Below, one piece after another: positions 13,496 to 59,183 of a DNA stretch of 64,000 nucleotides. The stretch's first letter is position 1. Each line of letters opens with the position of its first letter. The stretch is from Candidatus Nitrospinota bacterium M3_3B_026 (lineage in GTDB: Bacteria > Nitrospinota_A > UBA7883 > JBPRGF01), in the NCBI GenBank assembly GCA_051418015.1, contig JBPRGF010000033.1, positions 160,001 through 224,000 on the forward strand, read 5' to 3'. Both the position numbers and the translations under genes were made by a program. The notes below the pieces were generated by a model. That model was given only the letters and a program-made list of their open reading frames with translations. It was not told the origin of the DNA and ran no database searches.

Positions 13496-14518
13496 ATGAA
13501 GCTGGGCGAGATCGCCTCGGCGCTCGGCCTCGAGGTCCACGGCGACGGGTCGGTCGAAATAGAACGCATGGCCCAGCTGGGGACCGCGGGGCCGGGAGAT
13601 ATCGTCTTTGTCCGCGACGAGGCCGCCGCCGCGGGCATGGGCGCATCCAGGGCTTCGGCGTTCATCTTGCCTCCCACGGTCAGGCCTGACAGGCCGGCCA
13701 TAGTCTCCGCCAACCCCCTGGCCGCGATGGCCGGGACTCTGGAGCTTTTGAGCCCCGAGCCCGCTCCCCCGCCCGGAGTCCATCCCACGGCCGTCATTGA
13801 AGACTCGGCGGAGATGGGACGGGACGTCCACGCGGGTCCCCACGTCTCGGTCGGCGCTGGCGCCAGGATAGGCGCCGGCGCATGCCTGCGGGCCGGGGCG
13901 AGGATAGGCGCGGGAGCCGTTGTGGGGCCGGGAAGCGTGATCTTCGAGAACGTTGTCGTCTATGACCATTGCCAGATCGGGGCCAGGTGCCGCATCCACG
14001 CGAACTCGACCATCGGCGCGGACGGCTTCGGGTACGCCCGGCTCGCGGACGGGGGGAGCGTGAAAATCCCCCAGCGCGGGATTGTCCGAATCGAGGACGA
14101 CGTGGAGGTGGGGGCCAACTCCTCCATCGACCGCGCCACCCTGGGGGAGACGGTTATAAAAAACGGAGTAAAGATAGACAACCAGGTCCAGGTAGGCCAC
14201 AACTGCGTGATAGGAGAGAACGTGGTCATCGCCGGCTGCTCCGGGGTGGCCGGATCGGTTGTCATAGGAGAGAATGTGATGATCGGCGGCATGGCCGCTA
14301 TCAGCGACCACGTCCACATAGCCCCCGGGACGCTGATCGCCGGGAAGACCGGTGTGCACGGAGACATTAAGGAGCCCGGTGTGTACGCGGGCCCCATGGC
14401 CATGAAGAACATGGAATATAAAAGGTTTCTCCTTTCGGGGAAGGCGGTGGCCAGCCTGAAAAAGAAGGTAAAACAGCTGGAGGACGAGCTGAAAACGCTG
14501 AAAGGGAAGGAAAAGTGA
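13496..14518 (+). CDS. lpxD: UDP-3-O-acyl-glucosamine N-acyltransferase LpxD
   Basis: Hexapeptide repeats, IGADGFGY and [11 protein letters not shown]. Confidence 0.93.
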
Positions 14519-34884: not shown

Positions 34885-35820
34885 TCAAATTTCATCCTCC
34901 CCCTTAACGGGGGATTTTCTAGCCTCATCCTCCCCCTCGAAGGGGGAGGATAAAGGTGGGGGTGGTGAATTTAATAATGCCCCCTCCCCTTTGTCCCCTC
35001 TCGCCGGGGGAGGGGATTTCTCATAGTCTTGCTGCTTTTTTCGAGAATTTGTTTTTCTTGGAGCTTTTCTTTTTTTCGTTTTTAATTTCTTTTTAATTGC
35101 GCGCTTTATTTTTTTATGAGCTTCGTCAGCCTTTTCCCCTTCAATAACCTCCCTCTTTAATACTTCCTGCATGATTACATTTTTGATTTCCGGGATTTGG
35201 AGTTTCACCTCCGGGGAGACTCTTTTTAACTCACGGCGAATTACTGTTAAAACAGGGTCGCTGAGTATGATAGCCCCAAGAGAATAACGGCTCATGGCCT
35301 GTCGTTGGATAAAGTATTCCTTTAATGCTGATTTATCCCTCCCTTTCCGAGTCAGAAGATATAAACACTCTAGATCATCAGAAGATTTATGATCCAACTC
35401 AAGGAAGTCAAATTCGAGCACGAGTTCTTTATTAATGGGTTTTGAGAAAGTGACACGGAAGATTTTCCAAACTACTCCATTCGTAAGCGCGATCCACTCG
35501 ACTCCCTGATTTGCCGCGTAATTCACGGCCTGACGAGTATGGTTTTCCTTTAAATCGAGGCCAATAGCTTTAACCTCTATGAGAAGCAAAATTGAGCCAT
35601 CAATTTCAATAGCAAGATCACAGAAGGTTCCGCGGATGGTGTGTTCGGATGTTATCTCTGTATATTTGTTGTAACCAAAGACATTGGAAAGAATGTCCGT
35701 GACAATGGTTACAGTATCCGCTTCATTTACATCTCTGGATCGGGCCGATTTTAGGATTGGCTGAAATTTTTTGACGTTTTTTGATAACCTTTCAACGATT
35801 CTTTTGGGGATGTTCGCCAT
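34885..35820 (-). CDS. Type I restriction enzyme HsdR N-terminal-domain (PD-(D/E)xK) protein
   Basis: NEADT, FCDLAI...LIEVKAIG, QAVNYA and WIALTNG. GGAGG RBS. Visibly AT-rich relative to its neighbours. Confidence 0.8.
   Translation of the reverse strand: MANIPKRIVERLSKNVKKFQPILKSARSRDVNEADTVTIVTDILSNVFGYNKYTEITSEHTIRGTFCDLAIEIDGSILLLIEVKAIGLDLKENHTRQAVNYAANQGVEWIALTNGVVWKIFRVTFSKPINKELVLEFDFLELDHKSSDDLECLYLLTRKGRDKSALKEYFIQRQAMSRYSLGAIILSDPVLTVIRRELKRVSPEVKLQIPEIKNVIMQEVLKREVIEGEKADEAHKKIKRAIKKKLKTKKRKAPRKTNSRKKQQDYEKSPPPARGDKGEGALLNSPPPPLSSPFEGEDEARKSPVKGEDEI
34925..35017 (+). repeat. C/G-run palindromic repeat, family 2, copy B
   Basis: TCATCCTCCCCCTCGAAGGGGGAGGATAAAGGTGGGGGTG...CCCCTCCCCTTTGTCCCCTCTCGCCGGGGGAGGGGA, preceded by a partial duplicate at 34892-34914. 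Confidence 0.75.
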
Positions 35821-37408: not shown

Positions 37409-38641
37409 ATGTCTGACCAGAAAATCCCATTTGAAGGAGCGTATGACCCCACCAGCGCGCTTCTCACGCTTCTGGAGAAGGAAGGCGTCCGGGTGACAAA
37501 GGCGATCACCGGACGCGGCTCCTGGGAGCCCGTGGACCTGAGCAAAAAGCGCCCGCTGAAAATCGGCTTCGCCCCGGGCGACGGGATCGGCCCGATCGTC
37601 GCCGTGGCGTCCCAGTCGATCCTCAAGCAGCTGCTCGGCTCGGAGGTCGAGTCCGGCCAGATCGAGATCGTTGACATCCCCGACCTGACGATCGAGAAGC
37701 GCCTGGAGCTGGACGTTACCGCGCCGGAGACCTCCATCAAGGTCATCGACAGCTGCGACGTCGTTCTGAAGATGCCCCTCGAGACGCCGGACAGCTCCAA
37801 GTATCCGAACGTCTCCAGCGCGAACGTCTGGATGCGCCAGCACATGGACCTTTTCGCCTGCATGAGGCGGATCAAGAACGACGAGCACAAGCTTGACTTC
37901 ACCATCTTCCGCTGCAACCTCGGCACGCCGTACCAGGACGCCAAGTCCGCCGGTGTCATGCAGATGAACGGCAAGGACGAGTACGCGATGTGCTTCTGGC
38001 CGCAGGCGCGGGTGGACATAGAGCGGCTCACCCACCTGGCCTGCCTGCACGCCGCCGGCGCCGGTTCGAACTTCGTCGTGCTGAACTTCAAGGACAACGT
38101 AATCAAGCCCGACGCCGCGGCGCTCAACTGGGCGAAGGAGTACATCGACGCCAACTTCCCGGATATCGACTACCTGTCCGTGAAGCCCGACGATTTCTCC
38201 TACACCATCACCCAGCCGGACAAGCTGGCCTCGATGAAGGGCGAGAAGACAGGCGAGAACCGCCCCTTCACCACGATGGTCTGCAACAACATCGTGGGCG
38301 ACATGGCCGGCGACGAAGGGGGCATGTACGTCGGCGGCATCGGCGGCGTCGGCTCGGCGAACGTCTCCTTCAGCCAGGGGATGTTCGAGGCCGGCGGCGG
38401 CACCGGCACCAGGATGATGCAGGAGGGCCGGGGCAAGTACGCCAACCCCGTCTCCGTGATAAAAGCGTTGGCGGAGATGCTCGGGTTCATCGGATACCCG
38501 GATCATCAGGTCAACATTCTCAACGCCGTGGATGCGCTGAACGCCGCGGGCAAGGCGCCCGACGGCGGCAGGAACAAGGTCACCTGCGAGGAGGCGGCCG
38601 ATTTCATCATCGAGCAGCTTACCAGCAAGGCGGGCAACTAG
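37409..38641 (+). CDS. Isocitrate/isopropylmalate dehydrogenase family protein, probably a divergent isocitrate dehydrogenase
   Basis: PGDGIGP, SANVWMR (SxNxxxR), FRCNLGTPY (R..Y), KDNVIK, GDMAGD and ANP. Strong RBS. Confidence 0.8.
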   Translation: MSDQKIPFEGAYDPTSALLTLLEKEGVRVTKAITGRGSWEPVDLSKKRPLKIGFAPGDGIGPIVAVASQSILKQLLGSEVESGQIEIVDIPDLTIEKRLELDVTAPETSIKVIDSCDVVLKMPLETPDSSKYPNVSSANVWMRQHMDLFACMRRIKNDEHKLDFTIFRCNLGTPYQDAKSAGVMQMNGKDEYAMCFWPQARVDIERLTHLACLHAAGAGSNFVVLNFKDNVIKPDAAALNWAKEYIDANFPDIDYLSVKPDDFSYTITQPDKLASMKGEKTGENRPFTTMVCNNIVGDMAGDEGGMYVGGIGGVGSANVSFSQGMFEAGGGTGTRMMQEGRGKYANPVSVIKALAEMLGFIGYPDHQVNILNAVDALNAAGKAPDGGRNKVTCEEAADFIIEQLTSKAGN

Positions 38642-38710: not shown

Positions 38711-38861
38711 ATGGCGCCCCGGCCTGCGCTTTGCGTACATAAAACTTGTCTCAAGCTGGATTAGAACGTAGAATTTCCATTTGCCCAGGGCGCGGGAATA
38801 ACGGGCGGAGAACGATCCTCCGCGCTCCGCCAGGGCACTGGAACAACCGGAAAACACCAGC

Positions 38862-40109
38862 ATGGAGAGTCCGTTGGCGACAGACTCGAGGATAGTGATA
38901 ACCGGCGTGGGGCTGACCGCCCCCAACGGCGACAACCTGTCCGAATACCGCCGGGCGCTGCTTGCGGGCGAATCCGGAGTGGAGATGTTCGAGACGCGGT
39001 ACATGCCGCCCGTCCCCGCCGGTGTCTGCGATTTTGACGTCACGAAACACCAGACCGGGAAGGCGGCGCGGCGGGGGACGCGCGCGGGGGCCATATCCAT
39101 CTATTGCGCCAACGAGGCCGTCGCAGACTCCGGCTTCGACCTGGACTCCGTGGAGCGCGGACGGGTGGGCGTTTTCGCCGGTATCACCGAGCACGGCAAC
39201 GTCGAGACGGAAAACGAGATATACAACATCAGCAAGTATAACTACGACATCCGGTTCTGGACGCATCATCACAACCCCCGCACCGTGGCGAACAACCCCG
39301 CGGGCGAGGTGACGCTGAACATGGGGATAACGGGCCCGCACCTCTGCCTCGGCGCGGCCTGCGCGGCGGGGAACATCGGGCTGGTGTACGGGGCGCAGAT
39401 GCTCCGGCTCGGCGAGGTGGACGTGGCCATAGCGGGAGGCGTCTCCGAGAGCATCCGCACCTTCGGCATCTTCGCCAGCTTCAAGGCGCAGAACGCCCTG
39501 GCCCATCACGAAGACCCGGCGAAGGCCAGCCGCCCCTTCGACCGGGACAGGAACGGTATAGTGGTGGCCGAGGGGGGATGCTTTTTCATACTCGAGCGGA
39601 TGGAAGACGCCCTCGCCCGCGGGGCCAGGATTTACGGCGAGCTGGCGGGCTACGCCTACAATTCCGACGCCGTGGATTTCGTCCTTCCCAGCCCGCCGCG
39701 CCAGGCGGAGTGCATGAGGCTTGCGTTGAAACGGGCCGGGATGAGCCCCGCCGATATCGACATCATCAATACCCACGGCACAGGCACCACGCAGGGGGAC
39801 CAGTACGAGAGCGCCGCCCTCCGGGAGGTCTTCGGGGGGGCGGCGGCGCATGTCAACAACACCAAGAGCCTCATAGGCCACGCCATGGGAGCGGCCGGAG
39901 CGCTGGAGCTGGCTGGGAACCTGCCCGCCTTCGAGGACGGGATGGTCCATCCCACGATAAACCTGGAGAACCCCGACCCGGAGTGTGATATCCCCAACAT
40001 GGTGACGGGCGGACCGGTGCGCAGGGAAGGGGTAAGCGCTATAATGAACAACTCCTTCGGGATGCTCGGCATAAACTCCGTGGTGGTTGTTAAAAGATTT
40101 GTAAGTTAG
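38862..40109 (+). CDS. Beta-ketoacyl-ACP synthase (FabF/FabB family)
   Basis: Cys-His-His triad: AACAAG, NTHGTGT, KSLIGHAMGAAG; also RPFDRDRNG and NSFG. Confidence 0.92.
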   Translation: MESPLATDSRIVITGVGLTAPNGDNLSEYRRALLAGESGVEMFETRYMPPVPAGVCDFDVTKHQTGKAARRGTRAGAISIYCANEAVADSGFDLDSVERGRVGVFAGITEHGNVETENEIYNISKYNYDIRFWTHHHNPRTVANNPAGEVTLNMGITGPHLCLGAACAAGNIGLVYGAQMLRLGEVDVAIAGGVSESIRTFGIFASFKAQNALAHHEDPAKASRPFDRDRNGIVVAEGGCFFILERMEDALARGARIYGELAGYAYNSDAVDFVLPSPPRQAECMRLALKRAGMSPADIDIINTHGTGTTQGDQYESAALREVFGGAAAHVNNTKSLIGHAMGAAGALELAGNLPAFEDGMVHPTINLENPDPECDIPNMVTGGPVRREGVSAIMNNSFGMLGINSVVVVKRFVS

Positions 40110-40173
40110 GCCGTCTTTGGCCATAATGGTTACGCGAAGGTGATCTCATTCGTGTTCATCAGGGAAAGGGCAA

Positions 40174-40425
40174 ATGACAGAAGAGGGAATACGTCAGGCT
40201 GTTGTTGACATAATGAGCGAGATATTGCCGGACGAGGATCTTGCGGATATAGACCCGGACAAACCCTTGCGCGAGCAGCTCGATCTCGACTCCATGGATT
40301 TTCTGGACATCGTCATGGAGCTGCGGAAAAGGTACGGCATCGAGGTGCCGGAGAGTGACTACGGGAAGCTTGTGACGATGAACAGCACCGTTGACTATCT
40401 CCTGCCGAAGATGACCGGCGCCTGA
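40174..40425 (+). CDS. Acyl carrier protein
   Basis: Acidic 83-aa protein with the phosphopantetheine motif LDLDSMDFLDIVMEL. Confidence 0.92.
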   Translation: MTEEGIRQAVVDIMSEILPDEDLADIDPDKPLREQLDLDSMDFLDIVMELRKRYGIEVPESDYGKLVTMNSTVDYLLPKMTGA

Positions 40426-40468
40426 TAGACTCTTCTCCCTCCCGACGGATTTTACACAGTCAAGGCTC

Positions 40469-41863
40469 TTGCGATACGACGCCATTATCATAGGGGCCGG
40501 TATGTCCGGCCTGGCGGCGGGCATCAGGCTGGCGCATTTCGGCCACAATACGCTGATCCTGGAGCGGCATTACAGGACAGGCGGATTGAACTCGTGGTAC
40601 AGGATGGCGGGGCGCTTTCTTGACACGGGACTGCACGCCATCACGAACTATTCTCCCCACGGCCCCAGGAACGCGCCGATGGCGCGGCTCTTCAGGCAGC
40701 TGAGGCTGCGGCCGGAGGATTTCGCCCTGGCGCCGCAGAGGATGGGCAGGATAGTCTTCCCCGGGGCCGAGCTTGAGTTCGACAACGACTTCGAACGGCT
40801 CTCGGAGAGCGTGGCGCGGGTCTTTCCCCGGGAGGCGGACAATTTCCAGAGGCTGGTCAGGACGATCAGGGAGTACGATGACCTCGACCTTGAAAAAAAG
40901 CCGGAGAGCGGCCGGGAGGCCGTCCGCTCCATCATCGGCGACCCCCTGCTGGCGGACATGATAATGATGCCGGTCATGTTCTACGGCTCCTCCCAGGAGG
41001 ACGACATGGAGCTGGGCCAGTTCGCCGTCGTGTTCAAAGGGGTCTTTCTGGAGGGGCTCGCGCGGCCCGAGGGGGGGATCAGGAGGATACTGGATGCCCT
41101 GGCGGCGCGGTACGAGGCCGCCGGGGGGCGGATGAGGCTGAGAACCGGCGTTGAGAAAATAACCGTCGAGAACGGGCGCGTGGCGGGGGTTGTCACCGAT
41201 GATGGGGAGAGGATAGAGTGCGGCGCGGTCCTTTCGTCGGCGGGCCTGATGGAGACGGCGGCGGTATGCCCCGAGGCCAGGCCGGACGTCCCCGGTCTTG
41301 CGCCTGGCAGGATATCGCTCATGGAGTCGATAAACGCCCTGGACGCCCCAGCGGCGGCGCTGGGGGCGGAGGAAAGCGTGGTATTTTATAGCAACACCCC
41401 CACGCTGCGCTACAGGAGGCCGGACGGGCCAGCGGATGTCGACAGCGGGGTCATCTGCTATCCTGAAAACTTCGATTACGGCGAGCCTTTGAAAGAGGGG
41501 ATGGTGAGGATCAGCAACCTGGCCGATTACGGGTTCTGGATGGGCGCGGAGGAGATGGAGTACAGGGAGGCCAAAAAAGAGTGGCACTCCCGCTCCCTGG
41601 CCGCCGCTACGTCGGCGGGTCCGGACATCCGGGGCAGGATAACTTTCAGCGACGTTTTCACCCCGCGCACGATCCACCGCTACACGGGCCATATCAACGG
41701 CGCGTTGTACGGCGCGCCGATGAAAATGAAGAACGGAAGGACCCCCGTCGAAAACCTCTACATCACCGGGACGGACCAGGGGTTCCTCGGGATCGTCGGC
41801 GCCATGCTCAGCGGCGTGACGGTGGCCAACATCCACATGATGTCATCGGCGCGGAGGGGTTGA
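40469..41863 (+). CDS. Phytoene-desaturase-like (CrtI-type) FAD-dependent oxidoreductase 1
   Basis: IIGAGMSGLAAG..LERHYRTGG, FTPRTIHRYTGHINGALYG, NLYITG and GIVGAMLSG. TTG start. Confidence 0.85.
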   Translation: MRYDAIIIGAGMSGLAAGIRLAHFGHNTLILERHYRTGGLNSWYRMAGRFLDTGLHAITNYSPHGPRNAPMARLFRQLRLRPEDFALAPQRMGRIVFPGAELEFDNDFERLSESVARVFPREADNFQRLVRTIREYDDLDLEKKPESGREAVRSIIGDPLLADMIMMPVMFYGSSQEDDMELGQFAVVFKGVFLEGLARPEGGIRRILDALAARYEAAGGRMRLRTGVEKITVENGRVAGVVTDDGERIECGAVLSSAGLMETAAVCPEARPDVPGLAPGRISLMESINALDAPAAALGAEESVVFYSNTPTLRYRRPDGPADVDSGVICYPENFDYGEPLKEGMVRISNLADYGFWMGAEEMEYREAKKEWHSRSLAAATSAGPDIRGRITFSDVFTPRTIHRYTGHINGALYGAPMKMKNGRTPVENLYITGTDQGFLGIVGAMLSGVTVANIHMMSSARRG

Positions 41864-41869
41864 CCCGTC

Positions 41870-43279
41870 ATGGTGGAGAGGGGGCTGAAGGGCATAAAAG
41901 ACGAATACGACTGCGTTGTCATAGGCGGCGGCCTCGGCGGGCTCACCTGCGCCAACCGGCTGGCGAGGGCGGGCCGCTCTGTCCTCCTGGTGGAGCAGCA
42001 CACGCAGCTCGGGGGGCTGGCGGCCTGGTTCAGGCGCAAAAAACACGTATTCGACGTGGCGCTCCACGGCTTCCCCTACGGTATGGTTAAAACCTGCCGC
42101 AAGTACTGGAGCCGGGAGATAGCGGATCGCATCGTCCAGCTCAAGGGAATAAGGTTCGACAACCCCCAGTTCCAGCTAGAGACCACCTACGACGAAGAGG
42201 ATTTCACGAGGATACTGGTCGAGCGGTTCGGCGTCCCCGGGGAGAACGTGGAGGGCTTTTTCGCCGCCGCGAGGGGGATGAACTTCTACGACGATGACGG
42301 GAGGAGCGTCGGGGAGTTTTTCGAGGAGTTTTTCCCCGGCCGCGACGACGTCGTCCGGCTGCTCATGGAGCCGATAACCTACGCCAACGGCTCCACGCTG
42401 GAAGACCCCGCCATAAGCTACGGGATTGTTTTCTCGAACTTCATGAGCCGGGGGGTGTATACCTTCCGCGGCGGCACGGACCTTTTCATCCGCCTTCTCG
42501 AGGGCGAGCTTGAGAAAAACGGCGTGGACGCGCGGACGAAGACGCTGGCGGAGAGGATCGTGTTTGAGCGGGGAAGGGTGGCGGGAGTCATCGCCAACGG
42601 CCGGCTGGTCAGGACGCGGGCCGTCGTCTCCAACGGCAACCTGCGCAGGACGGTCCTGGACATGGTTGACGAGGATGTCATCTCGGAAGATTTCAGGAGA
42701 AAGGCCGGCGCGGTGCGGATGAACAACAGCTCCTGCCAAGTCTATATTGGCATACGGGAGGGTGAGACTATAGACTACATAGGCGATCTCATATTTACCT
42801 CCACGGCTGAGAGGTTCGACACCGGCATGATGCTGTCTAAAGACGTGACGAGCAGGACGTTTTCTGTCTACTACCCCGAGCTTCGCCCAGGCCACGGCCG
42901 ATACACGATCGTGTCCTCATCCAACGCAAGGTACGAGGACTGGGCGGATCTGCCCGAGGAGAGTTACAAGGAGGACAAGGAAAAACTGGCCGAGGAGACC
43001 CTCGACTGTCTCGAAAGATATGTCCCGGACATACGGAGGAAAGCCGACCATGTTGAGGTGGCCACCCCCCGCACGTTCAAAAGGTATACCCTTCACGAAG
43101 GGGGCGCGTCGTTCGGGACGAAGTTCGAGGGGCTGGAGGTGAGCCAGAACCTGTCGAAGGAGGCGCCGGGGGTTTTCCACACCGGCTCCGTGGCCATCAT
43201 AATGTCCGGCTGGCTGGGCGCGGCCAACTACGGCGTGATAGTGGCCAACGAGGTGGACAAATACCTGGGGCGGCGATGA
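41870..43279 (+). CDS. Phytoene-desaturase-like FAD-dependent oxidoreductase 2
   Basis: [36 protein letters not shown] and [10 protein letters not shown]. Confidence 0.85.
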
Positions 43280-44019
43280 TGAGAGACTTCGAGGGCCAGA
43301 CGGCGGTCGTGACGGGAGGCACGAAGGGCATAGGACTGGCCGTCTGCGAGCTTTTTTTGAGGGAGGGGGCGAAGGTGGTCGCTGTCTACTCGTCCGACGA
43401 GGACGCAGCCTCGAGTTTCGCCAAAGCCCATGCCGCCAGCGGCGACGCGCTCCGGACGCGGCGCCTGAACGTGTCGGACCACGCCGCTGTGGAGGATTTC
43501 TTCAGGGAGTTCCAGGACGCCGGCGGGGCGCTGGACATCCTCGTGAATAGCGCCGGGATAAGGCGCGATTCCGTGGTGGGGCTCATGGCCGAAAAGGACT
43601 GGCGCGCCGTCATCAACGTCAACCTTACGGGAACGTTCAACATGTCCAAGCACGCCGTGCGCCTGATGTCCAGGCGGCGCTACGGCAGGATCATAAACAT
43701 AACAAGCCCCGTGGGCGAACGCGGCCTGCCGGGACAGGCCAACTACGCCGCCAGCAAGGCGGGACAGGTCGGCTTCACCAAAGCCATGGCGAAGGAGGTG
43801 GCGAGCCGGGGGGTGACGGTGAACTGCGTATCTCCGGGGTTCATCGACACAGAGTTCATCGCCGACCTGCCGGAAAAAAACCGAAAGGACTACCTGGAGC
43901 GCGTTCCGGCTGGCAGGTTCGGAACGGCCGAGGAGGTCGCCCGCCTGGTCGGCTTTCTGGCCGCCAGGGAGTCGTCGTATATCACGGGCGCCGTTTACGA
44001 GGTAACCGGCGGACTCTGA
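43276..44019 (+). CDS. fabG: 3-oxoacyl-ACP reductase (FabG-like SDR)
   Basis: [24 protein letters not shown] and VSPGFIDT. Confidence 0.85.
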
Positions 44020-44160
44020 CGGCCGTGGGCTCTTCGCGCAACCGCGCGCTTTGCCTTTCCCGATTTTTTTGTTTTGATAGGGCCATTGACCCTCCTTTGT
44101 GGTAGAATCTCCGGCTTTAAGGCGGCAAGGCTGGACTTTTTAGTAGGGGCTGGTTCTATT

Positions 44161-44586
44161 TTGGACATTTACGGCGCCATACCCCATCGTCCGCCGTTTC
44201 TTTTCGTGGACAAGGTGACGGAAGCAGGCGAAAAGAAAATCCGGGCGGAAAAGGTCTTCGGGGCGGATCTCGAATTTTTCAAGGGGCACTATCCTCATTT
44301 TCCAGTGGCGCCCGGCGCGCTGATACTGGAGAGCATTTTTCAGGCCGGGGCCATCCTCGTTTCCGGGATGGCGCCGGATCCGGGACGGGGCGTCCCCGTA
44401 GTCGCGAGAATAAAGGACGCCAAGTTCAGAAAAATGGTGAGGCCCGGAGACGTCCTCGAGATCGAGGTGGAGCTCGAAGACACCCTGGGATCGGCCTTTT
44501 ACATGAAAGGCAGGGCCCGTGTTGATGGAGAGCTTGCCGCTTCCGTGTCTTTCACTTGCGCCCTGGCGCTGGTGGGGGAGGACTGA
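44161..44586 (+). CDS. Second FabZ/FabA-like 3-hydroxyacyl-ACP dehydratase
   Basis: IPHRPPFLFVD, FFKGHYP..PVAPGALILESIFQ and KFRKMVRPGD. Probable TTG start at 44161; an extended -10 (TGGTAGAAT) lies at 44100-44108. Confidence 0.85.
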   Translation: MDIYGAIPHRPPFLFVDKVTEAGEKKIRAEKVFGADLEFFKGHYPHFPVAPGALILESIFQAGAILVSGMAPDPGRGVPVVARIKDAKFRKMVRPGDVLEIEVELEDTLGSAFYMKGRARVDGELAASVSFTCALALVGED

Positions 44587-44637
44587 AAAGCGCCGCGGCC
44601 CGGGTATTTTCCCGGAGCCGCGGAGATCGCAGAATCT

Positions 44638-45465
44638 ATGGGGGATGACAAGGCTGTGAGCTTCCTTGGGTTTGAGGGAAAAAAATATCTCGTGTTCGGG
44701 GTGGCGAACAAAAGGAGCGTCGCCAGCCACATCTCCGGCATTATCAGGGAGGAGGGCGGCGAGGTCATCCTCTCCGTGGAGAACGAGGAGAGAAAAAAGA
44801 CGGCCCAAAAGCTCTTCCCCAGCGCCCCGGTGTATGTCTGCGATGTCTCCAGGGACGAGGACATAACAAAACTCGCCGCCAGCGTGGCCGATGACCATGG
44901 CGTCATCCACGGCATAGCCCACTCCATCGCCCACGCCGATTACCCGGAAGGAATGAAACCCTTCCACGAAATAAGACGCGAGGACTTCATGAGGGCTATG
45001 GACATATCGCTCTTTTCGCTTATCGCCGTCTCCAACGCTTTCAGGGACATCATCGATAAAAAAGGCTCTGTCGTCACCGTCTCCATATCAACAACCAGGA
45101 TGGCCTCGGAAAGCTACGGCTACATGGCTCCCATCAAGGCCGCGCTGGACTCTGCCGTCGTCTTCCTGGCGAAAAGCTTCAGCCGTTTTTCCGAAGTCCG
45201 GTTCAACGCCGTAGCCCCCGGTCTGCTCAAAACCTCCGCCTCAGCGGGAATACCGGGATACGTGGACGCCTACCTCTACGCCGAACGGCTCACTCTGAGA
45301 GGCCGCGCCCTGGAGACGGATGAGGCGGCGCGGGTGGCCGCCTTTCTCCTCAGCGGCGCCTCAAGCGGGGTAAACGCTGGAAAGGTCGTGGTGGATGCCG
45401 GAATGGGCGTCAACTATTTTGACAGAGATTTGATAAACAGCATGTTGAAACGCGGGGCGGAATAA
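44638..45465 (+). CDS. fabI: Enoyl-ACP reductase (FabI-like SDR)
   Basis: VFGVANKRSVA, CDVS, HSIA, YGYMAPIKAALD and GLLKTSAS. Confidence 0.8.
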   Translation: MGDDKAVSFLGFEGKKYLVFGVANKRSVASHISGIIREEGGEVILSVENEERKKTAQKLFPSAPVYVCDVSRDEDITKLAASVADDHGVIHGIAHSIAHADYPEGMKPFHEIRREDFMRAMDISLFSLIAVSNAFRDIIDKKGSVVTVSISTTRMASESYGYMAPIKAALDSAVVFLAKSFSRFSEVRFNAVAPGLLKTSASAGIPGYVDAYLYAERLTLRGRALETDEAARVAAFLLSGASSGVNAGKVVVDAGMGVNYFDRDLINSMLKRGAE

Positions 45466-45801: not shown

Positions 45802-46218
45802 ATGAAGCAGACATTCAGAGACAGGCTGAAGCTGTTGATGAAGGGCGAAAGGCCGTATACGTGGGCCAGGAAGGTCGGGATAGAGAAGGGGCTTTTCCAG
45901 TATTACTGGCAGAAGGGCAAGATCCCGACGTACGAGAATCTCATAAAAATTCAGAACTATTCCGGCTGTTCGCTGGATTGGTTGCTTACGGGCAAGGCTG
46001 TCGCCATCGACAAGATAGAGGATCTTCCGATGGTTCGCGAGCCGAACCCCGTTTACGGTGAGATGAACCTGCGCCGGGCCAGTTCCCTGGAAAAGGTCAA
46101 GAAGCTCTACTCCTCTAAGAACGAGAAGGACATCGAGCTTTTCGAGGGCGTGCTGGAGAAGATCGTGTCCGACGGGAGGGGCAGGAGAAAGAGCGGAGCC
46201 GAGAAAGCGAAAAACTGA
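45802..46218 (+). CDS. XRE/phage-repressor-like HTH protein
   Basis: FRDRLKLLM...WARKVGI...PTYENLIKI...CSLDWLLTGK. GGAGG RBS. Confidence 0.8.
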   Translation: MKQTFRDRLKLLMKGERPYTWARKVGIEKGLFQYYWQKGKIPTYENLIKIQNYSGCSLDWLLTGKAVAIDKIEDLPMVREPNPVYGEMNLRRASSLEKVKKLYSSKNEKDIELFEGVLEKIVSDGRGRRKSGAEKAKN

Positions 46219-46974: not shown

Positions 46975-49275
46975 ATGACCGAGCCCAGACACGACGATGA
47001 CAAGGCTGCTGGAGAGGCCGGAGAGGAGAGCCTCTCGAGGTCGGACATCGAAAAGTTCAAGGAGCTTCTGGACGAAGCGGCCAAGGAGCGCAAAAGCATT
47101 CAGCTTCTCGTCGAGTACCTGTCCAGGAACGAGGAGTCGATCGAGAACAAGGTCTCCCTTTTCAGGAAGATAGAGGACAAGCTCCAGAGCCTGGAGGCCC
47201 TGTCGGCGGATATCGAAAAGAAGCTCAGGGGGTTCGGAACCGTCGAAGAAGAGTTGACCCGGACAGGCTCCCGGATCGACGAGCTGATGGGCGTCCTGGA
47301 CAAAGGCCGGAAGGACATGGAGTCGGTCAATCTCCTCGTGGAGCACATAAACTCCAAGATAAAAAGCCTCTCCCTGCAGCGCGTGGTGGTGGAGCGCGCC
47401 AACGAGGAGGCCGGCAAGCTCAACGTGCTTTTCTGGGACATGGAGTCCAGAGTCAAGAGGCTGCAGGAAGAAAACAGGCTCGTAAAGAAATCCGAAAAGA
47501 ACATCATCCGGCTGGAGAACATGCTGGAGACGATATCCAGCCGGATGGAGAAGGTGGACCAGTTCAGGAGCCTGATGACCGAGGCCGACGAGCGCGTCTC
47601 CCAGATGAAGAGGGTTCTCGGCGACGTGGAGGCGAGGATGGCCTCGCTGGAGTCCCAGCGGCGGACGGTGGAGAACCTGGCCTCCGAGGCCCGGCGCGGC
47701 CGGGAGACAGTGGAGCGGATGCAGGAGTCCATCGAGGACGTGGTCAAGCAGCGCGTCGTCGTGAACGAGATCCAGGGCGAGGTGTCGGACCTGTTGAGCG
47801 GCATGAACGAGCTGCGCGTGGAGACACGGAACGCCCTCTCCAAGAGCGGCCAGGTCAGGAAAGTGGCCGACAGGCTCTCGGAGCTGGATCAGACCGCGGC
47901 GGACGTGGAGACCAGGCTGGCCCGCCTGCGCGAGGAGGGCGCCAGGGCGGAGGAGATAGAACGCAGGATAAGCGATCTCAACGCGTTCCTGGAGGAGAAG
48001 GTGGAGTCGAGGATACAGACCGCCTCCGGACAGCTGAAAGCCGTCCAGATGGCCCAGGAGAGCCTGGAGCGGTTCTATTCCTCGGCCGAGGAGATGGAAA
48101 AGAGGATCCGCGCCTTCCACGAGGACCTGAAGATCGCCGACGAGGTGGAGGCCAGCCTGGGGAGGATACGCGAGGCGGGCGAGGCCGCCTCGGCGAAGAT
48201 GGAGGAGTTGGGCCAGCGCCAGGCCATGGTGGAGCAGGTGGAGAAGAAGATAAACGACATCAACGACATGGTGCTCAACCTCGATGTCAAGATGGAGGCG
48301 CAGCTGGAGCGCCGCGGTCTCGTGGAGAAGCTCGAGAAAAAGCTCGACGGGATAGACTACCTCGTGGAGGACGCCAACCTGAAGATCGGCAAGCTCTCGA
48401 AGAAGATGGAGCTGATGGAGACGCTGGAGAAAAAGATCGAAGGGTTCCAGGGCGTCACGGAGGCCATGGAGGAACGGATACTGGACCTGGCGAAGGAGAA
48501 GGCCGCCCTGGACGCCACCGAGGAGAGGATGAAGGCGATGACCGAAAAGATGGCCGGGATGGAGGAGGATATCACGAGCCGTCTGCGAGACGTGGAGCGG
48601 AGCCACCAGCGGCTGGGGGAGATAAAGGACCTCCAGGGCAAGATGGAAAGCTCCATGGAAGCGATGAGCCAGAGGCTGGAAAAGGCCAGCGAAATCGTGG
48701 AAGCCAGCGAGAAGATGGAGTCGAAGCTCAACGCGATGGCCGCGCGCGCGGAGGACATGGAAAGCAGGATAGAAGGCGTGCGCGAGCAGGACGAGAGGGT
48801 CGTGGAGACGGAGAAGAAGCTCACGCAGCTGCAATCCATGTACGACGCCATTGACGAGCGCATATCGGCCGCCCGCGAGGAGGAGGAGATGATAAGAGCC
48901 TCCGCCGAAGAGGTGGAGGGACTGCGGGGAGCCCTGGAGGACATCCACGCCCAGCGGGAGCTTCTGGAGAAGGAGAAGGAAAGCTTCAAGGGCATCACCG
49001 ACAAGATAATAGACATAAACGAGACCATGGCCGACAAGGAGGCCAAGATCGACAGGCTCACGTCGAAACTGGCCATCGTCTCCAAGGTGGAGCGCAGGCT
49101 GGACGACCTGAACCTGATGGCCGAGGACGTCAAGGCGAAAGTGGCCGCCCTTGTAGAGGAGGAGCGCACGGTGGAGAAGGCCGGCGAGCAGATCGTGGAG
49201 CTGAAATTCCTGCTCGGCGAGATAGAAAAGAAGCTCAACGAGTACTTCAACCTCAAAAGCGGCGAGGGGGCGTAG
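46975..49275 (+). CDS. Long all-coiled-coil protein built from ~31-aa repeats, function unknown
   Basis: 766 aa, E/K/R/L/M-rich, almost no Pro, with no ATPase, signal or TM motif. AGGAGG RBS and TATAAT at 46910. Confidence 0.85.
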   Translation: MTEPRHDDDKAAGEAGEESLSRSDIEKFKELLDEAAKERKSIQLLVEYLSRNEESIENKVSLFRKIEDKLQSLEALSADIEKKLRGFGTVEEELTRTGSRIDELMGVLDKGRKDMESVNLLVEHINSKIKSLSLQRVVVERANEEAGKLNVLFWDMESRVKRLQEENRLVKKSEKNIIRLENMLETISSRMEKVDQFRSLMTEADERVSQMKRVLGDVEARMASLESQRRTVENLASEARRGRETVERMQESIEDVVKQRVVVNEIQGEVSDLLSGMNELRVETRNALSKSGQVRKVADRLSELDQTAADVETRLARLREEGARAEEIERRISDLNAFLEEKVESRIQTASGQLKAVQMAQESLERFYSSAEEMEKRIRAFHEDLKIADEVEASLGRIREAGEAASAKMEELGQRQAMVEQVEKKINDINDMVLNLDVKMEAQLERRGLVEKLEKKLDGIDYLVEDANLKIGKLSKKMELMETLEKKIEGFQGVTEAMEERILDLAKEKAALDATEERMKAMTEKMAGMEEDITSRLRDVERSHQRLGEIKDLQGKMESSMEAMSQRLEKASEIVEASEKMESKLNAMAARAEDMESRIEGVREQDERVVETEKKLTQLQSMYDAIDERISAAREEEEMIRASAEEVEGLRGALEDIHAQRELLEKEKESFKGITDKIIDINETMADKEAKIDRLTSKLAIVSKVERRLDDLNLMAEDVKAKVAALVEEERTVEKAGEQIVELKFLLGEIEKKLNEYFNLKSGEGA

Positions 49276-53967: not shown

Positions 53968-56900
53968 TCAGTTTAGCCTGAGGTTCCTGGCGGACTTGTC
54001 CATCTCCTCCTCGAAGCGTTGGCGGGAAAGGCCGATGTCCCTTAAAACCTCCTCGCGCAGCCTGTCGAGCAGGGAGCGCTTCTCCTTGTCGAAGGATGTG
54101 TCCAGGTCGGCCTTCTTTTTCATTATGTCGGCGATAAGCTCCTGCCGGCGTTTGTACTCTTCGGTTTTAAGCTCCATGTCAAGCATTTCCAGCTTTTTGC
54201 TCTTTTCCAGGGCGAGTTCCCTTTCGAGGCGCTCGATCCTCGCCTCCTTCTCCTTCTCGATCTCCCTGTCCGCCTTCGCCAGAAGCTCGGCGCGTTCCTT
54301 CTCCAGGCCGGAGAATATCTCCTCGCGCATTCGCGCCGCCTCGGAGTCCAGGCCGGATTTTATCCGTTCCAGCGTCTCGGCCCTTCTGGCCTCCTCCTCG
54401 GCGCGCAGGCTCCGTTCCATCCTGCCTCTTTCCAGCGCGGCCTCCTTCTCCAGCCGCTCCCGCTCCCTTTGCGCGTGTTTGGAGAGGCTCTGCTCGTAGC
54501 GCCTTCTCCTGCTCTCCCGTTCCGCCTCGAGCTCCTCGGCCATCTTCTCCTTCAGCTCAAGCCGCAGCCTGTCCGCCTCGTACCGGATCCATTCCTCCTG
54601 GCCGCGCCACAGCCTGTGGCGGCGCTCCATGAGGGCCTCCTCCATCCCCCGCTCGGCCAGCTTTTTCTCCCTTTCGAGGGCGGCGAAGATCCTGGACCTC
54701 TCCCCGGCCAGATCCACGCTCATCTCCCTGCGCAGCTCGATCCGCTCCGCCTCAAGCTCCCGCTCGGCGGCCTTGAGCCTCCTGGCCTTCTCCTGCGCGA
54801 CGTCCTCCAAAAGCTCGCGCAGCCTCGTCTCGCGCTCGGCGATGATCTCTTCGCGGAGGGTGGCCTCGGCGGCCTTGCGCTCCGCCCTGATCTTCTCCCT
54901 CGTCTCGTTGAGAAGCTCCGCCTTTTTCTTCACAAGCTCATCCCTGGCCGTGGTGATGACGGATCGCTTGTGGTCTTCCACCGCCTCGCGGATACGCGCC
55001 GTCATGAATTTTTCCCGGGAGCGCAGTCTTCCCTCCATGAGGGAGACCCTCGCGGCATACTCCTCCTCCAGCCCGGCCTCGATAACCGCGGCGCGGCGTT
55101 TCTTTTCCTCCCGCTCCCACTGGGCGAGCCTTTCGGTATGCCGGCGGCGAAGTTGGTCCACCTCTCTTTTCAGCTTTTCGATCTGAACCGTCCTGCGCTC
55201 GTCCAGCTCGTTTTTCAGCTCCATCTCCATCCGGACGGCGCGGGGGCGGGCCTGGGCCTCGAAGTCGGCCATTATCTCCCTGCGTTCGGCTTCCAGCCGC
55301 GCGGTCATGCGCTCCCGGGCGGCCTCCTCCTCCCTGGCGATCGTTTCCGCCAGCCTGTCATGTCTTTCGATCTCTTTGTCCTTCAGGCTTTTCTCGAGAT
55401 CCTTAAGCCTTCTTTCCCTTTCTTTCTCCACCTCCCTTCCCATGGCGTCCATGGCGGCGATTCTGCGTTTGGCGAGTTCGTCCTCGATGGCCCGCGCCTG
55501 GCCTCCCATGATATCGGCCATCTCCTGGGAAAGCCCCTCCATCAGCTTCTGACGCCTGTCGTCTATCTGTTTTTCAAGCTCATTCATGCGCCGTTCGCGC
55601 TCGGCCGCAAGGGCCTCCTCCAGGGCGCGTTCCTTCCCGGCCTTCAGGGAGGCGAGAAGGCTCTCAAGCTCCTCGCGCCGCTCGCGCCCGGCCGTCTTCA
55701 GCCGCTCGTTCATCTCCGCGTGGAGCCGGGCGGAGAGCTTTTCGGCGTCTTTCTTCACGGCGTTCAGGCTGGATGTCTTGAAGTCGAGCATTTCCTTTTC
55801 AAGCTCGAACAGCCGCGCCTCGCGCTCTATCTCCACCCGCTCGTTCGTCTCTCGCTCGAGTTTTTCCAGAGTTTCCTCGATCCTTTCGCGCTTTCGTTCC
55901 GTCTCCTTTCTCAGGGCGCGGGTAAGCTCTTCCTTTCTTTCCTTTGCCAGGGAGGCGATATCCCGCTCCAGGGTCCTGAGCCTCTCCGCGCGTTCGGCGG
56001 CGATGTCCCCGGCGATCTTTTCCGTCTCTCTCTGGCGGAAGGAGGCCAGGTCGTTGTTGAGCTTGTTGAGCAGCCGCTCCCGCTCCACCTCGCTCTTGCG
56101 GCGCAGAAGCTCGATGGTCTCCTGCTCGCGGCGGGCGCTCTCCTCGTCGAAGAACGAGGAGAGGCGCATGACCTCCCGGTAGGCGTCCTCCAGCAGGTTT
56201 TTCCTGATCTGGCCCGCTTCGTTTTCCGCCTCCTCTCGCAGGGTCGTCTTGAAGTTTTCTATGTCGCTTAAGGCTATGTCCCGCTCGTTCTCGCGCAGCC
56301 TTTCGGTCTCCTCCCTGATGGAGGCGATCTTCTTGTCCCTGCTCTCCTCCAGCTCCCGCCACACCATCTCGCGGACGCTCTCCACCTCCTTGCGCACCTT
56401 GGCGTGGACCTCCTTGCGGAGGCGCTCCTCCGTGTCGGCGATCTGTTTTTCCAGCCGCTCCTTTTTCTCGGCCTCCAGCTGGACGATTTTCTCCAGGCTC
56501 TCACGGCGCAGCCTGGACATCTCCTCCTCGAGGTCCGCGAGGGCGTCCGCCTTCGCTTTTTCCATCTGCCCGGCCAGGTCGGCGAGCCTCGCCTCGCGGA
56601 GGGCCGTGATGTCCTCCTCGATCTTTTCCTCGCGCCGTTTCTCCGCCTCCCGGGCGGACTCCTCCACGCTCTCCAGGCGCTGGTCGTATAGCTCGGAAAT
56701 CTCCTTTTCCATGTGTTCGACGGCGGCGCTCCTGCGCGCGTCGAGCTCCCCGGCCAGCTCGGCGCTTTTCATGTCGAACTCTCTTTTGACGGCCTCTTCC
56801 ATCGAGGCCATCCTTTCCCCCAGGCTCTTTTCCATCTCCTCGTCGACGGCCCTCCTGCCCCTTTCCAGGTGTTCGGCCAACTCCCGCTCCATGGCGGCCA

Positions 56901-57993
56901 TCCTCGCCTCGCGCTCATTTTCGACGTATGCCTCCACGCGGTTGAGTTGGCGGCTCTTTTCGTCCTCCAGCCTTTTCCGCGCGTCCAGGAGAGCCTGCTC
57001 GTCGAGTTCGATATCCAAGCCGGGCGCGACGCTCCTCGCCAGCGCCTTGAACGCCTCCGTGACGGGGAACCCCGGCTCCAGGTACGGCGCCGGTTCGCGT
57101 TCGAGCCAGGCGTTTTTCAACACGGGGTCCCGCGGGATGATCCCCGCGCAGTTCATCTCTATCCCCACGCGCTGACGGACGCGCTCCGGCAGGTCGTGGC
57201 CGAACCCCAGGCTGGCGCTGTCCTTCGCCCTGTTGACGGCGAAAAGGAAGACGGCCTCGTTCCTTATTTTCCGTATCTTCCTTCTGCGCCGCCGGTCCCC
57301 GTCCAGCGACTCCTCGATCTCCTCGGCGAGCGGTTTTTCGCCGCCGGCCATGGGCAGGGCTTTCCTGATGGCGGGAGGGGGCTTTTTGAACGCAAGCTCC
57401 ACGGAACGGGCCAGGGCTTTCTCCATCAGCGCCTCCGCCATCTCCGCGGAGCCGCTTGCAGCCTCGAGCACGAGCAGCGGCGCGTCCGCCGACAGCAGAA
57501 GGTCGAGCCTTGCGTTGTCCGTGATGAGCCCCAGGTCGGCCACCACGAAGTCGACGTCCAGGGCGGCCAGCTTTTTGAGAAGGCTCTTTTTGGGCCTTGC
57601 CGTCTTTTCCGGCAGCAGGGGGTGGTCCTCGCCGCCGTCGATCATGAACAGGTTCTTGTACCGCGTCGGCGCGACGGCCTCCTGTATGCGTCGCGCCCGC
57701 CCGGACAGAAAGTCCTGCATCGTGACGGCGGGCTTTTCCATGCCCATCAGGTAACGCATGGGCCGCGAGCCGAAGGAAAGATCGGCCACGACAACCCTTT
57801 TTCCAGAAAGCGCGAGCGTGGCCGCGAGGCCGAGGGCCGTAACGGACTTGCCGGAGCCGCCGGCCACTCCCGTGACGCCCACGGTGACGGCTTTTTTCCG
57901 TGTCTTCTGGAAGGGGGGGTGTGACAAGCGGTTGTCGGCGTTTGAATCTTTTTTCAGCGGATCGGACGGGGAGCCGGACGGGCCTTGAGCCAT
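53968..57993 (-). CDS. MinD/FlhG-like P-loop domain fused to a ~1000-aa coiled coil
   Basis: [21 protein letters not shown] and GIIPRDP in the N-terminal ~330 aa, then E/R/K/L/A-rich repeats. Start placed at ATG 57993; the ORF is open to 58170. Confidence 0.8.
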
Positions 57994-58136
57994 TTTGAGG
58001 ACCACCTTCTGAAAAATCCCACCAGTAAGAAGAAATTCTAATCGGCTTCGGGCCGCGCTGTCAATGATTTCAAGGCCGTTCAGAGGCGCTTGCCATGGTA
58101 GAATTATATAAAAAAGATTTTGGGCGTCGTTCGCGC

Positions 58137-59183
58137 ATGAGCCACGGAGATTCTGAAGGGGGGCGCGCAAGGGCCTTGGCGCGCGACCCCGGCGTTCTCA
58201 TCGAAACGCTGCGGCGTATCCATTGTCTGCGAAAGCTTTCGCCTCCGCAGCTCGCCCGCATCGCCAGGCTCAAGACCCGCCACTGGGGCCCGGACGAGTT
58301 CATCTTCAACGAAGGCGATCGCGACCTGGACAGGATGGTGGTCCTGCTCGCGGGAAAGGTCTTTGTGCGCAAGCGGGTGCTGAAAGGGGAGGGCGAGACC
58401 TTCGAGCAGGTGGCGGAGCTCTCCGGCCCGAACATCGTGGGGGACGACTCCTTTTTCACGGGCTTCAGGCGCTCCGCCAGCGTCTACGCGCGCGAAAGGG
58501 TCGCAGGGATACAGATCGAACGGGAGGACTTCAACGGCCTGGTAAGCCTGGATCGGGCGCGTGGGGTGGAGTTCCTGAAAAAACTCGTGGAGGAGGGCGT
58601 CCAGAGGGCGGAGCGGACGCTGGCCCGTTACATCAGCACCCTGCAGATAGTCATGGGCGGCGTATCGCTGAGCGACTGCGCCTTCTACGGGACGCTGGAG
58701 TCCTTCAAACGCCGCCTGCTCAAGACCCCGCCGGGGATGGACGAGTGGAGGGACAACGTCCGCCGGATCATGCTGATGATAAGGGAGGCCAACCAGGCCC
58801 TGGAGGAGCTTTACCATTTCGCCCACAGCCCGGAGCTTATGCTGGTCTCCGTGGATCTGAAAAAGTTCCGCCTCTCCAAAAGCCATACCTTCTACCCGCT
58901 TTTCAAGTCGATCACCGAGGAGCTGGCACAGACGCAGATGCTGGTCTCGCTGGATACCATAAACCTGAAGGACGTGGTCATCTCCAACGTGATGGCCGGC
59001 AGGGAGCCCGGCGATTCAGGGGTCGACTACTTCACGGCCGTGACCCTGGCCACCGGCGTGTACAGGGAGTTCGCCGCCCGCCTGCCGGAGATGGGGTTTG
59101 CCGCCAGGATGGCCGCGCCCGCGCCGCCCGCCCGCCGGGAAAGCAAAAGGGACAACAGTCTCCTGTGGGAGGATGCGCCCTGA
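58137..59183 (+). CDS. Cyclic-nucleotide-binding domain protein with an unrecognised helical C-terminus
   Basis: IFNEGD...MVVLLAGKVFV...IVGDDSFFTGFRRSASVYA is the cNMP fold pattern; no Crp HTH recognised. Confidence 0.75.
   Translation: MSHGDSEGGRARALARDPGVLIETLRRIHCLRKLSPPQLARIARLKTRHWGPDEFIFNEGDRDLDRMVVLLAGKVFVRKRVLKGEGETFEQVAELSGPNIVGDDSFFTGFRRSASVYARERVAGIQIEREDFNGLVSLDRARGVEFLKKLVEEGVQRAERTLARYISTLQIVMGGVSLSDCAFYGTLESFKRRLLKTPPGMDEWRDNVRRIMLMIREANQALEELYHFAHSPELMLVSVDLKKFRLSKSHTFYPLFKSITEELAQTQMLVSLDTINLKDVVISNVMAGREPGDSGVDYFTAVTLATGVYREFAARLPEMGFAARMAAPAPPARRESKRDNSLLWEDAP

Follow-up and report, generated by a model that had tools for sequence, protein, structure and literature searches.

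Positions 38862 to 45465 of a 64,000-nucleotide stretch of DNA from Candidatus Nitrospinota bacterium M3_3B_026 (the window; positions 160,001 to 224,000 of contig JBPRGF010000033.1, assembly GCA_051418015.1) hold seven open reading frames (ORFs), all on the + strand, with intergenic gaps of 64, 43, 6, -4, 141 and 51 nt. Scans of this cassette with Pfam and NCBIfam returned a ketosynthase (KS), an acyl carrier protein (ACP), two PF01593 flavoproteins, here called FlA and FlB, and FabG-like, FabZ-like and FabI-like proteins. The genes, with the basis of each assignment in brackets, are:

38862..40109, + strand: KS of a distinct FabF-like subfamily (Pfam/NCBIfam, motifs, alignment)
40174..40425, + strand: dedicated ACP with a DSMD motif (Pfam/NCBIfam, motif)
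40469..41863, + strand: FlA, a CrtI/CrtISO-superfamily flavoprotein in a clade of its own (Pfam/NCBIfam, tree)
41870..43279, + strand: FlB, a CrtI/CrtISO-superfamily flavoprotein in a clade of its own (Pfam/NCBIfam, tree, predicted fold)
43276..44019, + strand: FabG-like ketoreductase (KR), YxxxK intact (Pfam/NCBIfam, motif)
44161..44586, + strand: FabZ-type dehydratase (DH) (Pfam/NCBIfam, alignment)
44638..45465, + strand: FabI-like enoyl reductase (ER), Y-x6-K intact (Pfam/NCBIfam, motif)

A preliminary description of the window had given seven co-oriented genes in the order KS-ACP-CrtI-like-CrtI-like-KR-DH-ER; that order held, with all catalytic motifs intact, and the DSMD motif reported for its own ACP was seen on inspection of the sequence. 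The KS retains its catalytic residues (C167/H305/H340), and the motifs GITEHGNVETENE, WxHHHNPRT and FGMLG of its subfamily stand in place of the FabF segments that line the acyl pocket. It is 61-78% identical to its cassette orthologues and 37-38% identical to the housekeeping FabF of the same genome. Identity to the housekeeping counterpart is 29% over 55 aa for the ACP (AcpP) and 28% for the ER (FabI, on contig C24). The DH has a His/Glu dyad and no FabA Asp (alignment of 55 cassette sequences, of which the consensus and 12 rows were inspected), and its start is most likely the TTG at 44161 (141 aa) rather than 44074. A single KS was found among the seven genes, with no second KS or chain-length factor lacking the catalytic Cys, and the Pfam and NCBIfam scans found no radical S-adenosylmethionine (SAM) gene among them.

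Distribution of the cassette

A search of species-representative genomes with FlB gave at least 599 stretches, 594 of them confirmed; the locus counts below come from the best 80 of these. The 80 loci belong to Planctomycetota, Nitrospinota, Dehalococcoidia, Desulfobulbaceae/Desulfocapsaceae and others, with FlB at 59-76% identity. FlA was found in 46 of them, ACP in 38, KS in 37, DH in 52, ER in 34 and a KR match in 19, many of the loci ending early at contig ends; the KR gene is missing from most planctomycete copies. Where FlB was present without FlA (34 loci), FlA lay elsewhere in all five of the genomes that were searched whole. Among the matches listed, most of the named proteins nearest to FlA and FlB come from metagenome-assembled genomes (MAGs) of Nitrospinota, and FlB orthologues occur in the named cultured genera Planctomicrobium, Rubinisphaera and Thalassoglobus. 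At least 7819 FlB-related proteins at E <1e-150 were counted among 8000 scored. To judge from its conservation, the cassette is a real unit and not a chance arrangement, because FlB is 59-76% identical across several phyla and the gene order is conserved.

Two Dehalococcoidia loci (L023 and L024) have an oleA-KS pair duplicated ahead of FlA-FlB. Both KS copies of L023 keep their Cys, so the Cys-less chain-length factor that is a trait of highly reducing type II polyketide synthases (PKS) was not found there.

Separation from housekeeping synthesis and from carotenoid metabolism

The host genome (2.85 Mb, 97% complete) carries fabD-fabG-acpP-fabF on contig C23, fabI on C24, plsX-fabH on C9 and fabZ at window position 14515, and it has two KS genes only. 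The separate housekeeping set for which the preliminary description advised a check is therefore present in full, and the cassette DH is a second FabZ, as that description had it, the fabZ at 14515 being real. These comparisons support the view that the cassette is an accessory set resembling a type II fatty acid synthase (FASII), separate from the housekeeping one.

No match to phytoene/squalene synthase (PF00494) was found in the host genome, which extends to the whole genome an absence previously remarked on for the window, and no oxygen-dependent fatty-acid desaturase matched over the cut-off in the same genome. The best family models for FlA and FlB (carotenoid isomerase, CrtI and CrtD) scored 81-101 bits against cut-offs of 238-587. 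An action of the flavoproteins on free carotenoids, which had been named as an outcome that would overturn the original proposal, is thus not supported, and the sequence evidence supports a cassette that is not carotenoid-related. Annotation labels (phytoene desaturase family) are what would speak for a spare ordinary fatty acid synthase lying beside unrelated carotenoid or hopanoid desaturases. That explanation was rejected as very improbable: it is contradicted by the full housekeeping set elsewhere, the lack of a PF00494 match, carotenoid model scores that are all far under cut-off, and a gene order conserved across phyla.

The two flavoproteins

FlA and FlB are 27% identical to each other. 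Each forms its own clade (SH-aLRT 99) in a quick tree of 55 rows, which includes two unrelated dihydrolipoamide-dehydrogenase-like rows and does not resolve whether the two are sisters. FlB is strongly conserved, with a mean column identity of 71% in 51 sequences. Its predicted structure (pLDDT 90) has the carotenoid-desaturase fold, and the closest solved fold is that of the carotenoid desaturase 4REP (TM 0.76; Z 32.1, root-mean-square deviation (rmsd) 3.2, 435 residues aligned). The fatty-acid isomerase of P. acnes (2B9W) is among many tied flavoproteins further out (Z 24.0, rmsd 3.8, 392 aligned).

CrtI, CrtISO and CrtD, and likewise 2B9W, share with FlA and FlB the fold and the motif that binds flavin adenine dinucleotide (FAD), and they provide a precedent for flavin-dependent double-bond isomerisation. 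They differ in that identity in the structural alignment is 14-18% and that the substrate of FlA and FlB is predicted to be ACP-bound; unlike the hosts of carotenoid enzymes, the genome that carries the cassette has no carotenoid backbone gene. CrtI-fold enzymes (CrtI and CrtISO) isomerise double bonds using reduced FAD, and quinones can replace oxygen for CrtI (PMC3382138). The earlier suggestion that the flavoproteins alter ACP-bound chains, with a polyunsaturated outcome, agrees with this evidence, and it keeps the standing of a prediction.

Two further groups of flavoproteins were seen. Relatives of the host from the same order (L124-L127) have a third, stand-alone CrtI-like protein of ~510 aa that forms its own clade. 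On a Streptomyces plasmid (NZ_CP109497.1; L133:2803-5668), a ketosynthase-like gene directly precedes that of a flavoprotein 27% identical to FlB and outside the FlA and FlB clades; the neighbours are glycosyltransferase and P450 genes.

Co-occurrence with the olefin genes

An oleA-oleB-oleC-oleD operon, in which oleB and oleD are putative, lies at C24:82945-87573 of the host genome and opens with the genome's second FabH-like match. OleA matched NF006720 at 433 bits (cut-off 285) and OleC matched NF006754 at 689 bits (cut-off 478); the next-best models for OleC are those of olefin beta-lactone synthetase, under their equivalog cut-offs. The putative oleB product is a haloalkane-dehalogenase-like hydrolase, OleD models rank best for the fourth gene at 392 and 368 bits, under their cut-off of 580, and order and families fit A-B-C-D. 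The literature also notes oleC in a MAG of Nitrospina (PMC10176705).

When the four host OleABCD proteins were used as queries, ole genes were found within the stored flank (up to 8 kb) at 22 of 46 loci with FlA and FlB, against 1 of 34 without FlA. At linked loci the genes usually run oleC-oleD-KS-ACP-FlA-FlB-DH-ER, with oleA or oleB next. The genes for FlA and FlB lie between those for ACP and KR/DH, and at loci where the cassette and ole are apart they remain with ACP and KR/DH rather than with ole. Co-occurrence was also seen in a sample of 41 genomes (the host, 32 others of its phylum and 8 outsiders): FlB and OleC were each present in 24, the two sets being identical, and FlA in 23 of these, the miss being a 76%-complete genome. 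One family (f8) is patchy in concert, with FlA, FlB and OleC all present in 4 of 14 genomes and none of them in the other 10.

Mutual exclusion with the Pfa synthase

Nine-fold unsaturated C31 alkene (C31:9) of Shewanella depends on Pfa, a synthase of polyunsaturated fatty acids (PUFA), and OleA there condenses a predicted 16:4n-3 chain, probably taken from acyl-ACP (PMC6463001, PMC4882568). For some Deltaproteobacteria and one planctomycete, Shulse and Allen proposed that the type I Pfa supplies the ole pathway (PMC3098273). A multidomain PfaA (KS-malonyl/acyltransferase-tandem ACP-KR) gave no TIGR02813 match at E 1e-40 in the host genome, and PfaA was over its cut-off in none of the 41 genomes.

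Among 151 Planctomycetota, FlA was found in 26 genomes, OleC in 49 and PfaD in 23; FlA and OleC were together in 25, PfaD and OleC in 23, and FlA and PfaD in none. Thus 48 of the 49 OleC carriers had FlA or PfaD, never both, and one had neither. The same pattern was seen in 201 Desulfobacterota (FlA 12, OleC 21, PfaD 15; FlA with OleC 10, PfaD with OleC 9, FlA with PfaD 0), where 19 of 21 OleC carriers had one or the other, never both, and two had neither. FlA and PfaD were found together in 0 of the 352 genomes searched for both. Two suppliers of a single substrate that can stand in for each other would be expected to leave such a pattern.

In Shewanella oneidensis and Geobacter bemidjiensis, Pfa acts with OleABCD (PMC6463001, PMC4882568, PMC3098273), and the same oleABCD genes would act after the cassette in the pathway. 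Both systems may be linked or unlinked to ole, and both are predicted to provide an acyl-ACP donor for OleA. As a type I synthase, Pfa is multidomain and has ACPs in tandem, DH domains of the FabA kind and PfaD as its ER. The cassette encodes proteins of one domain each, among them a FabZ-type DH, a FabI-like ER and the two CrtI-fold flavoproteins; no FabA-like dehydratase/isomerase domain was found in its DH.

The ole link and the exclusion of Pfa, which the preliminary description missed because they lie outside the window, point to the product class. Taken together, the occurrence of the cassette with ole and, in the genomes searched, never with Pfa makes it likely that the cassette is a second oxygen-free way of making polyunsaturated chains and not a ladderane pathway. 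The explanation that we favour, with a probability of roughly 0.7, is that the cassette is a type II replacement for Pfa that supplies polyunsaturated, 16:4n-3-like acyl-ACP to OleA. The parts and the predicted product are known; what would be new is the candidate route that joins them. A literature search of titles and the starts of abstracts, which left out most subscription papers and all supplements, found none that linked the cassette to OleABCD or to the exclusion of Pfa. A chlamydial arachidonate cluster was dropped from consideration after the search returned no paper on it. Sukovich et al. (2010) may already have noted these genes beside ole clusters.

Proposed product and mechanism

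Desulfotalea psychrophila makes C31:8 and C31:9, and Rattray et al. (2009), who found no PKS-type PUFA synthase in it, named DP1860, DP2405 and DP2406 as phytoene-dehydrogenase-like candidates and put forward a novel anaerobic FASII route that would lead to PUFA and to both alkenes (PMC2649909). In the parts of that paper covered, the route is tied to the anammox clusters and to radical SAM genes, the ole genes are unmentioned, and the proposal comes with no enzyme tested. Across 461 residues, CAG37135.1 of D. psychrophila shares 59% identity with FlB; it is probably one of the tandem pair DP2405/DP2406. C31:9 is common in planctomycetes; Lacipirellula parvula and Gemmataceae, which make it and may carry either supplier, are not counted as evidence (PMC6995999, PMC7397252, PMC3327967). 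From the complementarity with PfaD we infer that the product would be a methylene-interrupted cis-PUFA.

The following mechanism is proposed. KS, KR and DH would lengthen the chain and remove water from it while it is bound to the private ACP; for malonyl loading and the phosphopantetheinyl transferase the cassette would draw on housekeeping metabolism. Each 2E-enoyl-ACP would go one of two ways, reduction by the FabI-like ER or isomerisation, and 4Z,7Z,10Z,13Z-16:4 would arise from repeats of three rounds, ending in 2E to 3Z isomerisation, 2E to 2Z isomerisation and full reduction. The DH domains of Pfa have been proposed to carry out these same two isomerisations (PMC4882568). In the cassette the two steps would be assigned to FlA and FlB, as redox-neutral flavin isomerases that perform a step each or work jointly as a pair, because the DH is FabZ-type, the cassette has no FabA-type isomerase and the flavoproteins are strictly paired extras. 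The divergent KS would trap the cis isomers. OleA would then join two of these chains by condensation, and OleD, OleC and OleB would complete the alkene, giving C31:9-type polyunsaturated alkenes. We give slightly better than even odds to the cassette being a third route to methylene-interrupted PUFA, besides oxygen-dependent desaturases and Pfa, in which two CrtI-fold flavoproteins set the cis bonds on ACP.

Isomerisation of double bonds is tentatively the leading assignment for the flavoproteins, at a little under even odds, ahead of net dehydrogenation or dienoyl reduction; it is favoured because of the FlB fold, the isomerisation by CrtI and CrtISO with reduced FAD, and the match of 2B9W in the wider fold. 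A supply of OleA by the same cassette with FlA and FlB as net oxidoreductases is a possible but somewhat unlikely alternative. They would then be quinone-linked dehydrogenases that introduce further double bonds into an unsaturated acyl-ACP, or conjugated-dienoyl-ACP reductases that leave skipped bonds. The proximity of FlB to 4REP and the use of quinones by CrtI (PMC3382138) are in keeping with this, as is the desaturation of already unsaturated fatty acids that Rattray et al. proposed for DP1860/DP2405/DP2406 (PMC2649909). However, CrtI yields conjugated trans bonds and not skipped cis bonds, no recurring electron-transfer partner gene was found in the best 80 loci, and the elongation cycle already yields a double bond in every round in a cassette that has its own ER.

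It is also conceivable, and distinctly unlikely, that the cassette feeds OleA with something other than a methylene-interrupted precursor of 16:4/C31:9 type (a chain of different length, a polyene with conjugated bonds or a ketone), or that the flavoproteins act after condensation. Only the complementarity with PfaD and the lipids of D. psychrophila point to the product, and some carriers have oleA without oleC: OleA is over its cut-off in G048 and G387, which have FlA without OleC, and G044 belongs here too. The exclusion of PfaD among OleC carriers in two phyla is nevertheless what interchangeable suppliers would give, and the flavoprotein genes travel with ACP and KR/DH when ole is unlinked.

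Several observations weigh against the cassette being the supplier of OleA by the proposed mechanism. The host ole operon is on a different contig from the cassette. One genome (G204) has FlA and FlB with no OleA or OleC match, and G044, related to the Dehalococcoidia of L023/L024, has OleA without an OleC match, which would yield ketones instead of alkenes. Three genomes (G292, G296 and G103) have OleC with neither FlA nor PfaD and also lack FlB; G103, a planctomycete, has only sub-cut-off OleA-like genes. Six of the 15 Desulfobacterota genomes with PfaD have no OleC. Each phylum sample includes its own cassette-bearing centre, G041 and G042 were picked as carriers, and the large genome searches scored top candidates only, so that matches may be missed. 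Kin are not independent, so Fisher P values overstate the association, and the argument from exclusion leans on replication in three phyla and not on P values. The fold and family scores do not discriminate between isomerase, dehydrogenase and reductase. Finally, a step from trans to cis goes uphill, in the direction opposite to that of CrtISO, and would need to be pulled by the KS.

The cassette supplies candidate genes for the formation of C31:8 and C31:9 in D. psychrophila and other Pfa-free bacteria, a question that dates from 2009. If the proposal is true, it would be a compact, seven-gene, oxygen-independent PUFA synthase using flavin chemistry new on ACP, and of use in engineering. It would account for the C31:9 of planctomycetes and sulfate reducers that have no pfa, predict C31:9 in deep-branching Nitrospinota, and bring thousands of mis-annotated 'phytoene dehydrogenases' (at least 7819 proteins) into lipid metabolism; the cassette would also leave the list of ladderane candidates.

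Comparison with the anammox ladderane loci

The preliminary description had likened the cassette to the proposed ladderane loci of anammox bacteria, kuste3603-3608 and kuste3335-3352. These clusters, like the cassette, join FASII genes to PF01593 flavoproteins (PMC2649909, PMC4790861) and have a dedicated ACP and a FabZ; unlike it, they include non-canonical KS and radical SAM genes. In the planctomycete sample, 13 genomes were classed as anammox-like by their content of hydroxylamine-oxidoreductase-type multihaem genes only (12 have several). None of the 13 had FlA, OleC or PfaD, and none had the cassette; in the five searched with an FlB profile, all five gave distant matches only, at E 1e-17 to 1e-25. 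Eight anammox-type flavoproteins in the quick tree share 22-27% identity with FlA and FlB and lie on separate branches. Two anammox-like regions hold, judging from ORF starts and order, an ACP, a FabZ, two KS (the second divergent), a flavoprotein and a probable radical SAM gene, the same gene set as that of kuste3603-3608 in PMC4790861.

By sequence, then, the resemblance is at the superfamily level only, and the likeness was not borne out. The reading of the cassette as a ladderane-type lipid cluster, contradicted by flavoprotein divergence, absence from anammox-like genomes and differing gene content, was set aside as having almost no chance of being right.

Two loci titled Candidatus Kuenenia stuttgartiensis (L064 and L065) contain FlB and share neighbours with loci of Planctomyces-labelled MAGs (L032, L046, L062 and L079). 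Their titles look wrong and could falsely suggest a cassette in anammox bacteria.

Neighbouring genes

Upstream of the cassette, at 37409-38641 (+), lies a divergent protein of the isocitrate/isopropylmalate dehydrogenase family that is far under every NCBIfam cut-off; no such gene was found beside the cassette in 90 other loci, and it is not counted as part of it. Scans gave weak promoter and terminator sites, one of them upstream at 38746-38774, which were not used as evidence. Past an AT-rich gap downstream, a 138-aa ORF at 45802-46218 (+) has no Pfam match and a helix-turn-helix-like look, and is possibly a regulator. Copies 73-80% identical lie directly downstream of ER in L012 and L019, and the host has partial paralogues on contigs C33, C24 and C3.

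Elsewhere in the window, a type I restriction HsdR N-terminal-like gene at 34885-35820 (-) lies in a stretch of ~50% GC, against 61% overall. A long protein of 766 aa at 46975-49275 (-) is probably coiled-coil and has no Pfam match. A 1400-aa protein at 53968-58170 (-), also probably coiled-coil, has a CbiA/ParA-like N terminus as its only match.

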